IMG/VR virus record: IMGVR_UViG_3300037510_000012
Location: 1 to 21,266 of that record
From: a virus
Lineage: Duplodnaviria; Heunggongvirae; Uroviricota; Caudoviricetes
Strand: one strand, 5' to 3'
DNA: 21,266 bases
Position 1 is the stretch's first letter. Each line of letters opens with the position of its first letter. This document shows, piece by piece, positions 1 to 11,600 of the stretch. Both the position numbers and the translations under genes were made by a program. The notes below the pieces were generated by a model. The model worked only from the letters and a program-made list of their open reading frames with translations. It was not told the origin of the DNA and did not search any database.

Positions 1-3000
1 GCAAAGGATTGGTCAGACGTTCTTGGCTTTGTTTACAATGAGGCTGGTCAGGTTACCACTCAGGAAGGCAAGACAGTTGCCACCATTGATGCTCAGGTAA
101 CTAAGCTGAAGGAAAAGAATTCACAGCTTGTGAAGAGCCTTCAGCTTGCTAAGGCTGCCGGTGACCAGGAAAAGGCCATTAACCTTGCTATCGCTGAGGG
201 ATTGAAGGTTCGTAATCACGGTGGTTCAGCCGATGACGCAATGAATGCCGCTAAGGTATCACTTCGTGCTGCCGGTTACACAACCCAGGAAATCAGCAAG
301 ATGGTCGCAAAGATTAAGGTTCAGGTCGATTTTGAAAATGCCAAGAGCACTCTTAATCGTCAGATGAAGGAATTCCACGACACCTTCAGCAAGGTCGCTA
401 ACAACGAATTTGGCCAGGGTACGTGGGAAGGATTCACCCGTGCATTCTCTGGTCGTGGAGATATTAACCAGAATGCTGCTGAGCGTGGTAAGGGAATGGC
501 TAAGGAATTCTGGACGGGATTCCAGGCACAGAACAGCCTGTCATCTCGTAAGGACTACTTTGACCAGTTCTTCAAGCAGATTGAGAAGGAACAGCACACT
601 GCTTGGGGACGCCTTGGAAATTCTAACCGTGCAGACCTAAAGAAGGTCGGTATTGAGTCATGGCAGGAATTCGCTGCTGCGTACAAGGACGCTCAGGATA
701 TGACTGATGTTGATTTCCGTAACAAGTGGGCCAATGGTGACATTGAGCAGGCTAACGAGGTAAAGAAGGCTTTGCGCGGACTCGGTAGCGAGACGACTCG
801 TTATGCAGAGAAGCACATGGATGCAGAAAAGCTCATTGCTCGTGAAATTGCCAAGAAGAATAATATGTCAGATGATGAAATCAAGAAGATTAACACAATT
901 GCTGATTTGTATGACGCTCTTGACATGTCTCTATACACAGTGAAGCAGGCTCAGTCTGGTTACACTGAGGCAATGAACAACTACAACCGTGAAGGAACAA
1001 AGCTTTCCAAGAAGGAGCAGCTACGTATCCTTAACATTTACCGCGTAAATGCCGGACTTGAAAAGGCAACATCAATCGAACAGGGATTCGGTGATGTTAT
1101 CGACGCAAGCACTGGAAAGGTAAAGGATAGTGCAGATGCAATGGATGAGGCTGCGGCTTCTGTTGATGACTGGAACAATGCTCGTCAGAAGGCATTCTCT
1201 GGTGCACAGGATACCGTACTTTCTGAGGCTGATGCAATTTGGTCTGACCAGGCTGACGCTACAATCAAGGCAATTGAGGACAGAGGTCAGCGTCGTGAAG
1301 ATGCTCTAGACGCTCAGGCAGAGCGTCAGGATGAGCGTTTCGATAAGCGTGCCGAGGCTGCTGATAAGAGATTCGATAAGCGTTCAAAGAATCTCGATAA
1401 GCGCTGGGACAAGATTATGGACGACTTCGATGCCAAGTGGGATAAGAAGCTCAAGAAGGAAGAAGACGCCTATAACAAGCGAATCGACAATATCAAGAAG
1501 GCTATTGACGCTGAGGAAAAGGCTGAGGAACAGCGCCAGAAGATTTTCGAGGCGGAAAAGTCCCGCCTTGAGAGAATGGCGCAGATGGCCAACTCCCAGA
1601 TTGATTTCAATGTCGCTGTAAATACTGGTAACCTTGATGAGGCTGCAAAGATTGCTAACAACATGCAGTCTACTGAGGCTAGCTGGACACAGGACGATGC
1701 CGCCGCTGCAAGCCAGACTTCTTCTGATGCTCGTAAGGCTAAGATGGAAGGTCAGATTGACACTCTTGAAAAGGCACGAGATAAGCGTCTAGAAGACCTA
1801 AAGAAGGTTGAAGAGGCAGAGAAGAAGGCACTTGAAGCTAAGAAGGAGCGTGAGCAGGAAGCCCTACAGGCAGAGCGTGAGCGTTACGAAAAGGCTCTTG
1901 AGGCTGAGCGTAAGCGTTATCAGAAGGGTATTGAGGCTCAGAAGAAGTACATTCAGGAAGAGACTCAGAGAAATGCTGATGCTACAAAGCGTTACCTTGA
2001 TTCACAGAAGAAGAAGCTTGAGCTTGAACTTCTAGCAGTTAAGGCTTCTGTCCCTCGCTCAAAGAAGGAATATCAGAAGCAGATTTCAACCATTGAGGGT
2101 CTTTACAAGAAGTACGGTGTAAGACTAACTGGATATGGTGACAGATGGGCAAACACAATTGGTGATGCCCTAACTGCTCACGTAAAGGAAGCATCTGCTG
2201 ATATTCAGAACAAGATTGCTTGGGGTCAGGTAGCCAACAAGGTAACACAGAGCATGGTTGATGGTGGATTCAATCTTACCACATCACAGTTCATGAAGTG
2301 GGTTACCACTGGTGAGCTTCCTAAGAATTACAAGGCTCCATCAAAGCCTAAGACGCGTCACACTGGTGGTCCTGTCTCTGGTAACTCAAAGTACGACAAC
2401 CGTGGTGGTCGTCACTGGGGTGCTGGACTCCGCCGCGACGAGTCAATGATGCTTTTGAAGAACGATGAATACGTTCTTAACGGAAAGGCTCATAAGGCTC
2501 TCGGTACAGATTTCCTTGACAACATTAACAGTGGAAAGGGAACTGGAGGAATTGGTGGTGCTGATACTCTAGGACTAGCTGGTGTATTTGCGGCGGGTCT
2601 TGCTGGAATGTACGGTGCAGCAGCAGATATGGTCATTAACGAAGCTGGTAATGCAGCTATGGGAATGGGCATTGATGGAATGGCAATTGCCGGTGCTGCT
2701 GGTAAGTACGGCGGTATCTACCTAAATGCTGAGCAGCTAAAGAATGCAGCAACCATTATTGGTGTTGGTAAGGGAATGGGTGCAAACACAAATGACCTTA
2801 TCGTATCGATTATGACTGCTATGCAGGAGTCAACCCTTAGAAACCTTCACTACGGTGACCGTGACTCTTTGGGTCTATTCCAGCAGCGTCCTTCTCAGGG
2901 TTGGGGTACTCCAGAGCAGATTCTAAATCCTTCATATGCAGCCCGCAAGTTCTTTGAGCACTTGCTAGCAATGAAGGGTCGCGGAAAGCTCAGCCTAACA

Positions 3001-3756
3001 CAGCAGGCACAGGCTGTCCAGCGTTCTGGATTCCCAGAGGCTTATGCACACTGGGAGGCAATGGCTAAGGCGGTTGTTTCTGGAACTGGATTCAAGCCAT
3101 TTGCTGGTGCTGGAGGAGCTTTGCAGCGTCCGGTAAGCGGTCCTGTTTCTCGTGACTGGGCACACCACAGCAACCTTCCAAGAGCTACTGACTTCGGTGT
3201 TGCAGTTGGAACACCTGTTCGCTCTGCAATGAACGGTTATGTTCAGACTTCTACTGACCTTCGTGGTTCAGGAAATGGCGGATATCGTTCGTACGGTCGC
3301 TACATTGTTGTTGCTAATGGTCTCGACAGAACCTTGTATGCTCACCTTTCAAAGCGTAACATTGGAGAAGGTTCGCAGGTTCGCGCGGGTCAGCTAATTG
3401 GTTATTCTGGTAATACAGGTAACTCTACTGGTCCTCACCTTCACTTTGAGACATGGAAGAATGGTAAGGATGTTCCTCCGGGAGTATTCGGAATTCCAGG
3501 TCTAAAGACTGGTGGATTCACATTGAGTGATGGTCTGGCAATGCTTCACAAGAAGGAAACTGTTCTTACGGCTCCACTTTCAGAGCAGCTTAAGTCCGGA
3601 ATTCAGAATATTGACCAGGGTATGAATAATGAGTACAATGTAAATGTAACATTTACTGGCCCTGTCAATTCTGAACTAGACATTGAGCGTGCCGTAACAA
3701 AGGCTATTAATAAGCGAGAAAGTAAGCTAGGAAGAAATAGGAGTATTACATCATGA
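1..3756 (+). CDS. Tape measure protein, 5'-truncated, with C-terminal lysozyme-like domain (~2722-3084) and M23 peptidase domain (~3120-3480)
   Basis: Frame 1 is open from base 1 (AKDWSDVLGF...), so the ORF-track start at 130 is artificial. The protein is long, Ala/Lys/Glu-rich and helical with 11-aa F/W periodicity. It carries AMQES...GDRDSLGLFQQRPSQGWG (lysozyme-like) and YAHLS...GNSTGPHLHFE (M23 HxH). Tail-tip genes follow. Confidence 0.93.
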   Translation, partial: AKDWSDVLGFVYNEAGQVTTQEGKTVATIDAQVTKLKEKNSQLVKSLQLAKAAGDQEKAINLAIAEGLKVRNHGGSADDAMNAAKVSLRAAGYTTQEISKMVAKIKVQVDFENAKSTLNRQMKEFHDTFSKVANNEFGQGTWEGFTRAFSGRGDINQNAAERGKGMAKEFWTGFQAQNSLSSRKDYFDQFFKQIEKEQHTAWGRLGNSNRADLKKVGIESWQEFAAAYKDAQDMTDVDFRNKWANGDIEQANEVKKALRGLGSETTRYAEKHMDAEKLIAREIAKKNNMSDDEIKKINTIADLYDALDMSLYTVKQAQSGYTEAMNNYNREGTKLSKKEQLRILNIYRVNAGLEKATSIEQGFGDVIDASTGKVKDSADAMDEAAASVDDWNNARQKAFSGAQDTVLSEADAIWSDQADATIKAIEDRGQRREDALDAQAERQDERFDKRAEAADKRFDKRSKNLDKRWDKIMDDFDAKWDKKLKKEEDAYNKRIDNIKKAIDAEEKAEEQRQKIFEAEKSRLERMAQMANSQIDFNVAVNTGNLDEAAKIANNMQSTEASWTQDDAAAASQTSSDARKAKMEGQIDTLEKARDKRLEDLKKVEEAEKKALEAKKEREQEALQAERERYEKALEAERKRYQKGIEAQKKYIQEETQRNADATKRYLDSQKKKLELELLAVKASVPRSKKEYQKQISTIEGLYKKYGVRLTGYGDRWANTIGDALTAHVKEASADIQNKIAWGQVANKVTQSMVDGGFNLTTSQFMKWVTTGELPKNYKAPSKPKTRHTGGPVSGNSKYDNRGGRHWGAGLRRDESMMLLKNDEYVLNGKAHKALGTDFLDNINSGKGTGGIGGADTLGLAGVFAAGLAGMYGAAADMVINEAGNAAMGMGIDGMAIAGAAGKYGGIYLNAEQLKNAATIIGVGKGMGANTNDLIVSIMTAMQESTLRNLHYGDRDSLGLFQQRPSQGWGTPEQILNPSYAARKFFEHLLAMKGRGKLSLTQQAQAVQRSGFPEAYAHWEAMAKAVVSGTGFKPFAGAGGALQRPVSGPVSRDWAHHSNLPRATDFGVAVGTPVRSAMNGYVQTSTDLRGSGNGGYRSYGRYIVVANGLDRTLYAHLSKRNIGEGSQVRAGQLIGYSGNTGNSTGPHLHFETWKNGKDVPPGVFGIPGLKTGGFTLSDGLAMLHKKETVLTAPLSEQLKSGIQNIDQGMNNEYNVNVTFTGPVNSELDIERAVTKAINKRESKLGRNRSITS
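1330..1455 (+). repeat. 11-residue tandem protein repeat in the tape measure protein
   Basis: Units DERFDKRAEAA / DKRFDKRSKNL / DKRWDKIMDDF / DAKWDKKLK, with an aromatic residue every 11 aa as is typical of tape measure proteins. Confidence 0.8.
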
Positions 3757-7100: not shown

Positions 7101-7344
7101 TCAGTCAGAGGCAGCAGCAAAGGCGCTAGGTGATTGGATTGTCGATAACTGGTCTGAGCCATGTGATGAGGTTGAACTTGAAGTCTTTGGTAATCCTCTT
7201 ATTCAGATTGGTGACGTAGTTGCTGTCAACTATCCGCCAAAGAATATGACTGCATCAACACACAAGTATTTCGTTATCGGTGTTGACCAGTCATGGGATA
7301 ATGGTCTATCTACTCAGCTTAAGCTTCGTAGAGCCAGAATCTAA
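4156..7344 (+). CDS. Minor tail protein, baseplate hub/Tal-like, with inserted sugar-binding-like domains, 1062 aa
   Basis: It follows TMP and Dit. Hub-type segments are GTISSNSGSITLSNIDGIFN, IWDNIQDLC...YFDEHGILQIKTRD (~5344-5433) and C-terminal GNPLIQIGDVVAV (~7189). It also has a galactose-binding-like stretch (~4546-4848) and a concanavalin/lectin-like stretch (~6085-6570). Confidence 0.75.
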   Translation: MQSSTSFLQNALKQGEDLYPAIRAIAEWNHNRYTTVTTVDNYQYDEKTNGYDLDMYPIETIIDPVRPTAGLLKARAGEGAVVQGYSDTVRGYRTYTADPDSKYKYWTGPAQANTTPYSGGGYTLPEPVRPHIVYEAPVLTNKIYICIEDSWARPQKWDIQITTNGTTWTTIASDIVTNDNGQVILYLQDDTSWSSTVNRNNGLNIRGIKLDVKSMNRVNSWFNLVELGARLEKDLSDRIIDFSVGNELSDTDFITPMGTISSNSGSITLSNIDGIFNYDNLSSPYHGLIDANVKFMIDFGIDVSAWGGSGIEYIRMATMYSDTWGGNEEQSSVSLKDASKFLQEVKPLAELMENVTIGMAIWRMLDSVGFIDYEYTRAAEVASNQIPFFWTDNEKTIWDNIQDLCRVTQTAVYFDEHGILQIKTRDSAFNKTAPVSWTFDYAQNGSKMPDIVSVDTSSNYEANKVTVKYQKTNLAQDSQGRPISEIVWQPEETIVLRSSALTTAITKTDMRFWIDKKDITDWPYEGMVNVRGELIKYKGKGYRYYPKGGSYTGNIDTDTVFKVIYSSDEKLQIDNELSSSVHGWRNYFTGYMKVEERGYDSTTAQDHPLIQEVWLSNGSYYGLEGGTQKLWNGGTKFMPTDSKLRLQSTGKKATGNHWYTARRGAWTGESPKFIGTRLMFPSNPKGKHTAAGIWVWGNTAQNNMYAIDIKCTKNIDRKTHNEVRVLKRKNGVVTSIGGKGATVAIDYDKWYDVDVVVTSTARFTVYINGSPVMNVIDNGTDIPISGRAGLYVRGDCVTDFEYFYMMADGGIQETDLDNSSYLDLIRGGYYSNQYYRDFVTRTRVAQKRRGKKTIKYTQWYDQRYFDEFGQQVHEYRPYTITFDKFPVLYSSLYVSNESQIVTDEYVHNPFGAHFIIANASRFNSVVNGEDTLTYGADNSVDQKIMITGRTIQQAEATDYVVSNDQAIKARGEIAIEFSSPWIQSEAAAKALGDWIVDNWSEPCDEVELEVFGNPLIQIGDVVAVNYPPKNMTASTHKYFVIGVDQSWDNGLSTQLKLRRARI

Positions 7345-7352
7345 TACCATAT

Positions 7353-7381
7353 TTGACTTTCACTTGACCGAAAGATATAAT
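7353..7381 (+). promoter_or_regulatory. Sigma70/HrdB-like promoter, probably giving a leaderless mRNA
   Basis: TTGACT (7353-7358), 17-bp spacer, TATAAT (7376-7381). The ATG at 7389 is 8 nt after the -10 box, with no SD sequence between them. Confidence 0.8.
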
Positions 7382-7388
7382 TATCAAT

Positions 7389-7769
7389 ATGGACCAAATC
7401 AAAAGCACTAATGTAATCAACGCACCAGAAGTCGTGCTCAATCCGGTATTCTTCCTTCCACCGGATGTTGTTGACGTGCGCGTCGGCACATCATCTGAAC
7501 CAGTTGAGGAAGATGGCGTTACCTATGATGACGTAATTGATGCTGACGATGTAATTACAGATGAAGATTTGGCCACCGACCCAGGACCGGAAGTTCCTGT
7601 TGATGACGATGGGGAGGGAGCAGAAGTGCTCCCTACACCCCAGTGGATGAACATTATCGACCAGCAGGTTAGAATCGCCCCGGATGGTAAGGCTGTCGTT
7701 GATGTTGTTATTGAGCTTGAGGACGTTTCAGGTGCAACCGAATACGACGTAAGGATTACCAAGGCATGA
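7389..7769 (+). CDS. Acidic tail-associated protein, 126 aa; C-terminus resembles the first strands of an FN3 domain
   Basis: It starts at the predicted transcription start. The middle is D/E-rich low-complexity sequence and the end is beta-rich (PTPQW...VVDVVIELEDVSGATEYDVRITKA). It has an ATGA overlap with the next gene. Confidence 0.75.
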   Translation: MDQIKSTNVINAPEVVLNPVFFLPPDVVDVRVGTSSEPVEEDGVTYDDVIDADDVITDEDLATDPGPEVPVDDDGEGAEVLPTPQWMNIIDQQVRIAPDGKAVVDVVIELEDVSGATEYDVRITKA

Positions 7770-8662
7770 GAGGCACATACAGATTTTATCAGAATGGCGA
7801 ACTAATCGCAGAGCAGCCCAACCTTATCACAACAGAAGGTGAGAGGCTTATTTTGCGTTACCTTGCTGGTCAGTCTCCTTCCCTTGGTGCTGCAATCGGC
7901 GCGGGTGTTTCATCAGTAGCAGCTACAGTAAATGATACCTCCCTCGGATTTGAGGTTGAGCGTGTATCAGTAAACCTCCGCAATGCCGACTACACAAACG
8001 GCGCGGTTATTTTCAAGGGTACAATGGAACAGGATGTTGTACTCAACATTTATGAAATGGGCCTATGGTCATCTGCTGCAAACAATCTCAGTGGTGAATT
8101 CGATTCACGCATCATTACGACATTCGACCTAGAGCTTGAAACATGGTCCAATGTAACTGCGGATACCACGGCTAACAGAACAAGCGCGGATGCTGTAAAG
8201 GTGAGTGCTGCTATCAGCTCAACCACATCACCCCGCCTTGACGTTGAAATGGACCTATCTGGATACTCAGCAAATGACACATTCCTACTTGCCATGAGTA
8301 AGCCAAACAACAACATTTCAACCATTAAGCTTATCTTTGAAGATGTTGTCGGAGGTGGGAATGCCTCTTTGACAAAGACAGTATCCAGCCTACCAACAGG
8401 ATATAACATCGTTCAATTCCGTAAGGGAGACTTTACCATTACGGGTACCTTTAGCTGGGAAACAGTAACAAGAATGGGATTTGATGTAACCGCTGGAGGA
8501 ACGGCGGGTTATGTGATTCTAGATGGCCTTCGTGTAGAAGACCTAGATACACCAAATCAGGACTTTGTTCTTGTATCCCACGCTATCCTCGGAAGCCCAA
8601 TTCAGAAGACGAATGTGGCTCCGATGGATGTAGAATATGCATTGGAATTTAACGTAACATGA
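7766..8662 (+). CDS. Minor tail protein, tail-collar/fibre-anchor-like fold with an inserted CBM-like domain, 298 aa
   Basis: ATGA overlaps at both ends. The N-part (NLITTEG...DTSLGFEVERV...IYEMGLWS) and C-part (FVLVSH...IQKT...DVEYAL) match the fibre-anchor pattern. A jelly-roll-like insert lies at ~8108-8542. Confidence 0.7.
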   Translation: MRGTYRFYQNGELIAEQPNLITTEGERLILRYLAGQSPSLGAAIGAGVSSVAATVNDTSLGFEVERVSVNLRNADYTNGAVIFKGTMEQDVVLNIYEMGLWSSAANNLSGEFDSRIITTFDLELETWSNVTADTTANRTSADAVKVSAAISSTTSPRLDVEMDLSGYSANDTFLLAMSKPNNNISTIKLIFEDVVGGGNASLTKTVSSLPTGYNIVQFRKGDFTITGTFSWETVTRMGFDVTAGGTAGYVILDGLRVEDLDTPNQDFVLVSHAILGSPIQKTNVAPMDVEYALEFNVT

Positions 8663-11600
8663 GTAGAATTCTCCTAAGAGACCTAGAGCCAGGCAGACTG
8701 TATCACATTCAAGCAAGAGCCACGAATGGTGAGCAGTCTTCTCAGTGGTCCCAGCTTTGGGACCTTCAGACAACTAGCGACATTATGCCACCAGCCGCAC
8801 CAACCAGTCTAACATGGACTGTTGAGGGTACGGCTTTTAAGGCTGTCTGGACAGGACCGACACTAAACCAGGATGGAACGCCTTTGATGGATTTCAAGGA
8901 TTTCCAGGTAAAGGTTTATTCTCCTGCTGCACCTTCTACGATTATTACGTACTATACAACAGCAGCTAGATTCGATTTCCCATTCGAGCTGAATGTAAAC
9001 TCATTCGGTACTCCACGTGCTCAGGTGAACATTGAAGTTCGCGCACGTGACAATACAGGTAATCTATCTTCTGCTGCTACAGCTTCCGCTACTAATCCGC
9101 CTCCTGCAAATGTGGCCGGGTTTACAGCAACAGGCATTACAGATGCAATTGCTCTTAAGTGGACAGCAAATACAGATTCAGACCTAAAGTATTACCTCGT
9201 TTATCAGGGTACAGCATCAGGTTCAGAAACGAATCTTGTTTACACAGGACTCGCTACAACATTCGTATACAATACCCTGTCAACGAATCCACAATACTTC
9301 AAGATTTTCGCGGTTGACGTATTCAATTCACAGTCAGCAACAGGCGCAACCGCCAACGCAACCGCGAAAAGTTCTCTTGGTGTAGATACAACGCCACCAG
9401 CAGTTCCGTCAAATGTTCAGGTTACATCTAGCTTGCACAGCACTGACCCAACGGGAGGTACGGCGTTTATTGACGTGTCTTGGAATGCAGTAGCAGACAC
9501 CGACTTGCAGAACTACGTTATTCGCTATTCTTCAAGTTCAACGACGACTTCTTGGCAGTACCTAGAGATTCCTGAAGGAACCCTTGAGGGTAGAATTCAC
9601 AATCTCAGAGCAAACACAGCCTATTACGTTGGTGTAGCTGCTCAGGACTTCCAGGGTAACATGAGTGCATTTGCTAATGCAGGAACTTACCCAATTACGA
9701 CTCCAAAGGACACTACTGCACCTGCCGCTCCAAGCGGAGTAACAGTTGGCGCGGGTGTCACCACAATGACTGTTTACTGGAATGAGAATTCAGAAACAGA
9801 CGTTAAGGGTGGAATCGGGTATTACGAAGTTCAGATTGACACTGCAAATACATTCAATACAGGTAACCTTATTACCAAGCAGGTTAGTGCGACAATTACG
9901 TCATTCTCTAACCTGACTTCAAACACGACCTATTACACAAGGGTTCGTGCAATTGATGCTTCTGGTAACGCAGGTTCATATTCGTCAATTGTATCTGGAA
10001 CACCACGTTATGTAGCCAACTCTGATATTCAGGCTGGTACAATTAACGGTGACAGAATTACCGCAGCAACAATTAATGGTGACCGAATGATTGCAAACAC
10101 CCTTGATGCAAATGTCATCAAGGCTAACACGACATTCTCTCAGAACCTAAACGTTGGTGCGACCTTCACCATGGCCACCAGCGGTATTATGAAGAGCAGC
10201 AATTATTCGGCGGGTTCCGCTGGATGGCAGCTAACTAACACTACCCTAGAAATTAACCAGGGTACCATCAAGGCTGCTGCTCTACAGCTTCAGGACAGTC
10301 AGAATGTCATGCATCCTGCATACGCTGACTTTGAATACGTTTCATCATGGTACACCGGAAAGATTACAAGTTCTAGCCCTTCTGGAACAATCGCATGGTC
10401 TATCGTAAACACGTCAGAAATCACTCCAAAGTATGGTACTCAGTGCTTGAAGCTGACACGTACTGGAGGAACTGTCGGAGACGATTCAGATTTCTGGCTT
10501 AGCCCTTCATTCTCAACAGCTTACAATGTAAGCCTGGAGGCTGGACTCACTTACATTATGTCTGTATGGCTATACAATCCATCAGGCAACGGTACAAAGA
10601 ACGTTCAGTTGAAGATTCGTACCAATGATGGAACATATCGTTCATTCACTGCAATGATGCCAGTAACCGACAATGGTGCATGGACAAGGTATTCAGGAGC
10701 ACTAAATGTTGGAACGAATACCGCAGGTACTCTGGCTATCTCTTATGAGAATGACGGTACACTATATGTTGATGGTGTTCAGCTTGAAATCCAGATGGCT
10801 GGTTCAGGAACACCTTCCCCATGGCGTCCACCTAGCCAGACAAGCATTGATGGTGGAATCATTCGCACAGGACAGATTCAGTCTACAGCTTCAGCTAATG
10901 GTCTTTCAGGGCAGCCAGCATGGTCAATTAACATGGCTGGTAATGCCCAGTTTGGTGATGCCCTGATTCGTGGTCGTCTTGTTGTTGGTGACCCAAATAA
11001 CCCATCTGCTGATGGTGCTAACTCAAAGATTCAGTCTGCGAATTACGCGGCGGGTTCTACTGGATGGATTATTCGTAATGATGGATATGCAGAATTCCGT
11101 CAGATTGCAGTTAACTCAATCAAGGTTACGGCATTCGACTCTCCATTCCAGCAGTCATCAAACGCTAAGTTGTTCGACTACATGCAGGATGCAACTCTAT
11201 GGCTTACTTCTGGTTCTGTTACTCAGAAGACTGACCCTGGTGCGTATTCTGCCGAATCTCTATTTGAATTCACCGGTCCTGGATTGGTATTCAGAAATGG
11301 TGCGGGTGTTAAGCCTATTGCTTATGACCCTACTATTCTATACCGCGTTTCAGCACGTGTTCGTACATTCTCTGTTGGTACTCTAAACAGCAACGGAACA
11401 TTTGAGGCTGGTGATACAACTGGATGGACAGTAGACGCAACAAACGGTGCGACAATTTCATCAAGCACGGATTATGCAAACACTGGTACCCGCTCTATGA
11501 AGATGGTTTCTGGAGCATCTACTGGTGCATCTTATCGTGCCTGGACAAACGTACTTGTAACTCCAGGATACAATTACACAATTAACTTCAAGCTAAAGGC

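Follow-up and report, generated by a model that had tools for sequence, protein, structure and literature searches.

The tail-tip region of a large siphophage appears to encode one fibronectin type III (FN3) domain in two pieces, carried by two different proteins that would complete each other after translation. The phage is represented in IMG/VR by record IMGVR_UViG_3300037510_000012, and the window analyzed here is the whole 21,266-nucleotide (nt) stretch at positions 1–21,266 of that record. The module in question consists of three successive genes, encoding a small protein of 126 amino acids (aa) that we call the adaptor (P0001), a 298-aa tail protein (P0002) and a 2019-aa tail fibre (P0003). 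An FN3 domain is a seven-strand sandwich formed by the sheets A-B-E and C'-C-F-G. In the arrangement proposed here, strands A, B and C would lie at the extreme C terminus of the adaptor and strands E, F and G at the extreme N terminus of the fibre. Based on sequence comparisons, the conservation of the split and a modelled complex, we think it probable, at somewhat better than even odds, that the two halves make up a composite FN3 domain in trans, linking adaptor and fibre.

Two candidate half domains at the ends of two proteins

The fibre opens with what resembles the second half of an FN3 domain. Residues 5–32 match positions 52–79 of the 84-position Pfam fn3 profile (PF00041; E = 0.001, 19.7 bits), which is its C-terminal half only, and this part of the profile carries the L..L.PGT.Y.V.V.A pattern of strands E-F-G. 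The score falls below the Pfam gathering score of 25, which is set for a whole domain, as is expected for half of one. A hidden Markov model (HMM) of fibre residues 1–42 also matched the C-terminal halves of internal complete FN3 domains (residues ~312–351 and ~421–443) in most relatives. The start of the fibre at 8659 cannot be moved upstream, because a stop codon (TAA, 8650–8652) lies in the same frame 9 nt before the ATG. When folded alone, the fibre N terminus formed only the F-G hairpin (strands at residues 14–17 and 34–37) and residues 1–13 contained no strand, which is consistent with an E strand awaiting a partner. The half domain is followed by four complete FN3 domains (residues ~44–451; window 8788–10011) and, beyond this string, by a lambda-J-like tail-tip segment and CBM_4_9 domains; the fibre matches Pfam Phage_Tail_Tip (E = 2e-5) and the PHROG 'central tail fiber J' (E = 1.2e-22). 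An HMM restricted to the fibre's own four FN3 repeats lacked the power to score either half, and profile comparison with the fibre N-terminal alignment gave a match solely through the complete first FN3. Sequence searches of the PDB found no relative of the fibre, the adaptor or P0002.

The assignment of strands A-B-C to the adaptor rests on weaker sequence evidence than that of E-F-G to the fibre. In an exhaustive phmmer search, adaptor residues 76–121 aligned to the N-terminal half (B-C strands) of eight tandem FN3 repeats in P0092, a 1259-aa protein outside the adaptor family (phmmer E = 2.4e-11 for the whole sequence; Pfam fn3 E = 1.8e-34). Scored against an HMM of the P0092 repeats, the adaptor segment reached 14.3 bits over profile positions 9–33 of 91, compared with a maximum of 6.8 bits among 464 shuffled sequences. 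The adaptor ends directly after strand C, and in relatives found by tblastn the A-B-C segment is the best-conserved part of the protein.

Upstream of this segment, the family alignment defines an N-terminal peptide (residues 1–33; consensus ..DP.F..P.G..D..) in which P24 is nearly invariant, followed by an acidic linker whose length varies across the alignment and which is not alignable in the distant tblastn relatives. Two or more unrelated N-terminal types occur among the adaptors, including the DP.F..P.G..D type of the window and an R.VW....I..L type found at loci L061 and L042. At another locus (L038, positions 2480–3019), the small protein is 179 aa long, has a ~70-residue lysine-rich run instead of the acidic linker, and has a C terminus that diverges past strand B and matches only profile positions 2–35 of 49. 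The adaptor gene is present as a single copy in the phage's own genome.

Three observations of an earlier sequence-only reading are borne out by these results: that the 126-aa protein ends in what reads like FN3 strands A-B-C (the eight matches to P0092 repeats and the shuffle test), that the 2019-aa fibre opens abruptly with what reads like strands E-F-G (the Pfam half-match and the fixed start) and that the 298-aa gene sits between the two halves with ATGA overlaps on both sides. For the last, the coordinates of the open reading frames and the junction sequences place the three genes in three different frames with an ATGA overlap at both junctions.

Conservation of the split across related modules

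On the adaptor side, the family comprised 318 clusters at 50% identity (E ≤ 1e-3), of which 149 representatives, with lengths of 61–149 aa (median 115), were examined for their C termini. The protein ended no more than five residues past the last A-B-C position in 143 of the 149, and 0–9 residues past it in all of them; none of the 149 listed representatives extended into C', E, F or G. The adaptor alignment contained no conserved stretch of 7–10 columns. On the fibre side, a Met followed directly by the E strand was found in 56 of 58 relatives (first 150 residues, down to 43% identity), and the remaining two are 5'-truncated calls.

Related loci were then compared as modules, gathered from IMG/VR and metagenomes with the middle protein as anchor, down to 32% identity in P0002. 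All ~38 distinct loci contained a gene with the A-B-C half and had a next large gene opening with the E-F-G half, and the three-gene order was kept in all but one. Junctions differed by lineage and included ATGA overlaps, other overlaps, gaps of 27–29 nt and non-adjacent genes, with the structural cut point constant throughout. Because the pattern recurs in every related module examined, it lies far beyond chance. By these sequence comparisons the split is old and conserved, and this conservation is the strongest argument that it is functional.

The sequence-only reading had offered, as an alternative, that an ancestral single gene was split by insertion of the middle gene, for which a homologue with both halves fused in one open reading frame would be telling. 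No such homologue turned up in a non-exhaustive search of the 149 representatives out of 318, the 58 fibres and the ~38 loci, and the insertion scenario thus finds no support.

The two halves would make one domain if they were joined, and a single polypeptide is a formal possibility if the 298-aa gene were bridged by splicing, ribosomal bypass or frameshifting. We regard it as extremely unlikely. The three frames, the stop codon just ahead of the fibre ATG and the lack of a slippery site for entry past that stop argue against frameshifting, and an Rfam search of positions 7200–9000 gave no match to an intron or any other family. The intervening open reading frame is itself strongly conserved and folds confidently in prediction. 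Moreover, junction geometry varies among lineages, and small proteins and fibres all have their own stop and ATG, respectively, at a constant structural position.

A predicted complex of the two halves

A complex was modelled from fibre residues 1–150 (58-row alignment) and adaptor residues 70–126 (150-row alignment). It scored 0.63, compared with 0.00 for the best of three controls. Of 80 solved complexes, 58 reach the mark used for this score, as do 2 of 110 mismatched pairs; these counts are rough here because our own alignments were used. Model runs shared at least 90% of contacts, and the predicted local distance difference test (pLDDT) value of the partner was at least 77.

In the model, adaptor residues 80–126 contact fibre residues 1–42. 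Two antiparallel strand pairs are among the lowest-error contacts: fibre residues 4–9 with adaptor residues 103–109 (VVDVVIE), corresponding to the B-E pair, and fibre residues 15–22 with adaptor residues 119–124 (YDVRIT), corresponding to the C-F pair. Strand A packs against G and F, with adaptor T83, part of the initial P-x-P motif, contacting fibre residues 21 and 28. The strand pairing given by these predicted contacts is that of the canonical FN3 topology, with sheets A-B-E and C-F-G. The first complete FN3 domain of the fibre was included in the modelled segment, and the model did not draw on it to fill out the half domain. The predicted composite has six strands, with C' encoded in neither half.

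Several points weigh against a composite domain. The evidence is computational throughout, and split halves of a common fold can pass a structure predictor through its memory of solved FN3 structures; given this possible effect, the model shows that the halves look complementary and supports binding without showing it. No Pfam fn3 match was found in the adaptor or in any of the 150 family members, which gave just scattered weak Ig-like matches, and an hhalign comparison of the adaptor family with the fibre's fourth FN3 was not significant and mis-registered strand C with F. The missing C' edge strand suggests that a third partner may take part. Inter-protein covariation (mutual information with average product correction, 37 unique pairs) placed one predicted contact in the top 40 versus 0.8 expected, a result that is uninformative for so few and related sequences. 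Finally, both the tail-tip anchoring of the adaptor N terminus and the position of the 298-aa protein in the assembly, discussed below, are pure conjecture.

The failed profile matches would fit a chance resemblance, in which the adaptor C terminus is a generic beta-hairpin region and not FN3. This is highly unlikely, given that eight true FN3 repeats are all matched over the same half, that a model whose controls scored 0.00 shows canonical complementary pairing and that the cut point is exactly conserved.

A more substantial alternative is that an old gene fission left the two halves as relics, each now packing not on the other but on another partner, which could be the 298-aa protein, a 1062-aa protein encoded upstream or other fibre chains within a trimer. 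Such a scenario is in keeping with the open sheet edge left by the absent C', with the lack of detectable covariation between the halves and with the position of the middle gene, which is always between or beside them; in addition, the model covers a single pairing, that of adaptor and fibre. However, the halves picked each other in that model, in canonical pairing, despite the presence of the fibre's first complete FN3, and FN3-type core patterns are kept in both across very long divergence. The model of the 298-aa protein is also closed (pLDDT 92.5), with no obvious missing strands to be filled. We consider the relic scenario unlikely. The proposal of the sequence-only reading that the two halves build one FN3 domain in trans has gained support from a modelling test of the kind it had suggested, run with controls, and from the conservation of both halves and their cut point, at the level of prediction.

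Gene context and neighbouring proteins

The window covers the tail-tip region of a large siphophage, which DNA and protein searches group with the ~130-kb Streptomyces phages of cluster BE (Stanwilliamsviridae, Loccivirinae); the phage genome record itself is 129,142 bp long with direct terminal repeats. The genes in the window are ordered as tape measure (1–3756), 133-aa minor tail protein, 1062-aa minor tail protein, P0001, P0002 and P0003, and the same order was found here in 38 of 38 matching GenBank records, in most of which the small protein is annotated as 'hypothetical protein'. The tape-measure protein contains a Peptidase_M23 domain near its C terminus (residues ~1062–1160 of the open frame, E = 4e-22), which fits a cell-wall-cutting tape measure and a Gram-positive host. 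Coordinates of the module and its parts are listed in Table 1.

Table 1 Features of the three-gene module and of a variant locus (window coordinates unless a locus is named)
Feature	Position	Strand	Basis or remark
Predicted sigma-70-like promoter, TTGACT-17 nt-TATAAT	7353..7381	+	11/12 consensus matches
P0001, adaptor gene, 126 aa	7389..7769	+	phrog_11696; 'hypothetical' in relatives
Adaptor N-terminal peptide, residues 1–33	7389..7487	+	Conservation in family alignment; presumed tail-tip anchor
Adaptor acidic linker, residues 34–80	7488..7628	+	Sequence; variable length, low conservation
Candidate FN3 N-terminal half, strands A, B, C, adaptor residues 81–126	7629..7766	+	FN3-repeat matches, model interface, family C termini
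P0002, tail-protein gene, 298 aa	7766..8662	+	phrog_9983
P0003, tail-fibre gene, 2019 aa	8659..14718	+	phrog_11445
Candidate FN3 C-terminal half, strands E, F, G, fibre residues 1–42	8659..8784	+	Pfam fn3, HMM, model interface
Variant loci	L041 50–2949; L042 1441–2205 of reverse complement	L042 minus	

The end of the -10 box of the predicted promoter lies 7 nt from the adaptor ATG (7389), so the transcript of the module is probably leaderless. Of 17 loci inspected, 16 have the same arrangement (TATAAT-N7-ATG) ahead of the small gene, in modules sharing only ~35–40% protein identity, with a more variable -35 box. Besides the window, these are L001, L002, L003, L005, L007, L009, L011, L012, L014, L033, L034, L036, L037, L039 and L060, and the exception is L061. 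From this sequence pattern, P0001, P0002 and P0003 probably form their own leaderless transcription unit.

The AlphaFold2 model of P0002 is a closed two-domain fold without FN3, in which a CBM-like jelly roll interrupts a second beta domain. Fold searches matched it to CBM11 and CBM30, to phage minor tail proteins, among them one of Streptomyces phage Warpy, and to turret and tail proteins of the archaeal Haloferax virus HFTV1. Judging by this predicted fold, the most likely role of P0002 is that of a tail-tip accessory that binds glycans. For the 1062-aa protein, Pfam detected no FN3, the PDB search found no relative and the ESM Atlas returned only sub-threshold leads; from gene order we infer that it could serve as the hub.

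Fibres with a common N-terminal region of ~450 residues (P0004–P0061) fall into two main length classes, ~1110–1180 and ~2000–2035 aa. The distal receptor-binding part thus seems to be exchanged as a cassette, with the socket and the FN3 string kept.

A candidate joint and its relation to known systems

According to the mechanism we propose, the two halves would associate after translation into a six-stranded, FN3-like sandwich without C', held together by B-E and C-F strand pairs and with A packed against G. The result would be a non-covalent plug-and-socket joint that attaches the fibre inside a domain. The N-terminal peptide of the adaptor would bind the tail tip, through either the 1062-aa protein or the 298-aa CBM-like protein, and the acidic linker would act as a flexible tether between this anchor and the joint. 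Organization of the three genes as their own leaderless unit, with ATGA-coupled translation of the second and third, would favour matched amounts of the proteins. Docking of the fibre on the tail through this joint is suggested by gene order and by analogy with the pb3–pb4 junction of phage T5.

One contig encodes a variant of this arrangement. At L041/L042, both from a single 80-kb viral contig, no small adaptor precedes the middle gene. Three paralogues are instead encoded upstream (254, 717 and 266 aa), each with an A-B-C-like segment near its N terminus followed by a proline-rich linker and other domains that give the proteins the look of structural payloads. The 687-aa fibre of this contig still opens with the E-F-G half. 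The A-B-C scores are weak for two of the three paralogues (7.4 and 3.4 bits), and on this sequence evidence we treat the variant as a lead; should it be real, the half domain would be acting as a portable plug. The broader idea that the half FN3 is a portable docking code, by which any protein with an A-B-C plug hangs on a fibre with an E-F-G socket, is tentative and on balance doubtful. If it held, a trimeric fibre in the L041/L042 phage could display up to three different payloads, and the split FN3 would be a natural, orthogonal protein-ligation pair.

The composite could also form for a different purpose, with the adaptor acting as an assembly factor or chaperone that keeps hold of the exposed half domain while the fibre folds or trimerizes and is then released or replaced, in which case it would not be a structural link in mature virions. 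The adaptor is small, acidic and largely disordered, like many phage assembly chaperones, it is annotated in relatives as a hypothetical and not as a tail protein, and the modelled interface fits a chaperone equally well. If the adaptor were released, however, the mature fibre would be left with an uncovered half sandwich of three strands. In addition, the conserved N-terminal peptide of the adaptor suggests a second binding partner, and at L041/L042 the A-B-C half is found inside larger multi-domain proteins that resemble structural payloads. We attach only a low probability to a transient role.

The closest structural parallel is the tail tip of T5, in which a long linker and two FN3 domains form the end of pb3, the hub protein, and pb4, the fibre protein, opens with three FN3 domains and has a spike; loops between two whole FN3 domains make the pb3–pb4 junction (10.1101/2022.09.20.507954). 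As in T5 pb3–pb4 and lambda gpJ, a tandem FN3 string leads to a tail-tip fibre in the window, here as the four complete domains of P0003, and in T5 the central fibre likewise begins as FN3 strings divided over two proteins, with a linker tying the first FN3 to the hub. The predicted junction differs in that it lies inside one domain, and the 'linker plus FN3' piece is a separate 126-aa protein and not the C terminus of the hub. The adaptor would thereby take the role of the C-terminal 'linker plus FN3' extension of the T5 hub protein.

Completion of an Ig-like fold in trans is also the basis of donor-strand complementation in chaperone–usher pili (Fim, Pap and Dr/DraE), in which an incomplete Ig-like sandwich is completed by another polypeptide. 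One strand of seven (G) is donated there, first by the chaperone and then by the next subunit in an usher-driven exchange. The likeness lies in the use of a trans-completed Ig-like fold as the glue of an extracellular fibre. In contrast to pili, the candidate joint combines three strands with three from two different phage-tail proteins, in place of a single missing G strand, and no sequence relationship to the pilus proteins is seen; nor does the window, part of a tail operon from a phage of a Gram-positive host, contain chaperone or usher genes. The analogy is therefore one of principle only.

Among systems in which two fragments of one fold rejoin and link two polypeptides, SpyTag/SpyCatcher (from CnaB2) and split GFP are engineered, and split inteins are natural, catalytic and self-removing. 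The pair described here shares the rejoining of fragments and differs from all of these in that no covalent bond is predicted and in that the split is natural, conserved and structural. A non-exhaustive literature search found no precedent for a split or trans-completed FN3 or Ig domain in phage tails. Trans-completion of an Ig-like fold is thus a principle already known from pili, and it is the naturally split FN3 in a phage tail for which we found no precedent.

Implications

The rules by which tail-tip proteins are joined have mostly been learned one cryo-electron microscopy map at a time, and a split domain would be a joint that can be read from sequence. If the composite FN3 is real, it would predict which small 'hypothetical' proteins are structural adaptors, and the natural pair of half domains (about 45 and 40 residues) would be a candidate tool for protein assembly. 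It would also explain the swapping of fibre cassettes, as each incoming fibre would bring its socket and the adaptor would keep the plug. In addition, the proposal assigns a function that can be tested to small proteins so far unannotated, in ~318 clusters (phrog_11696 and relatives).

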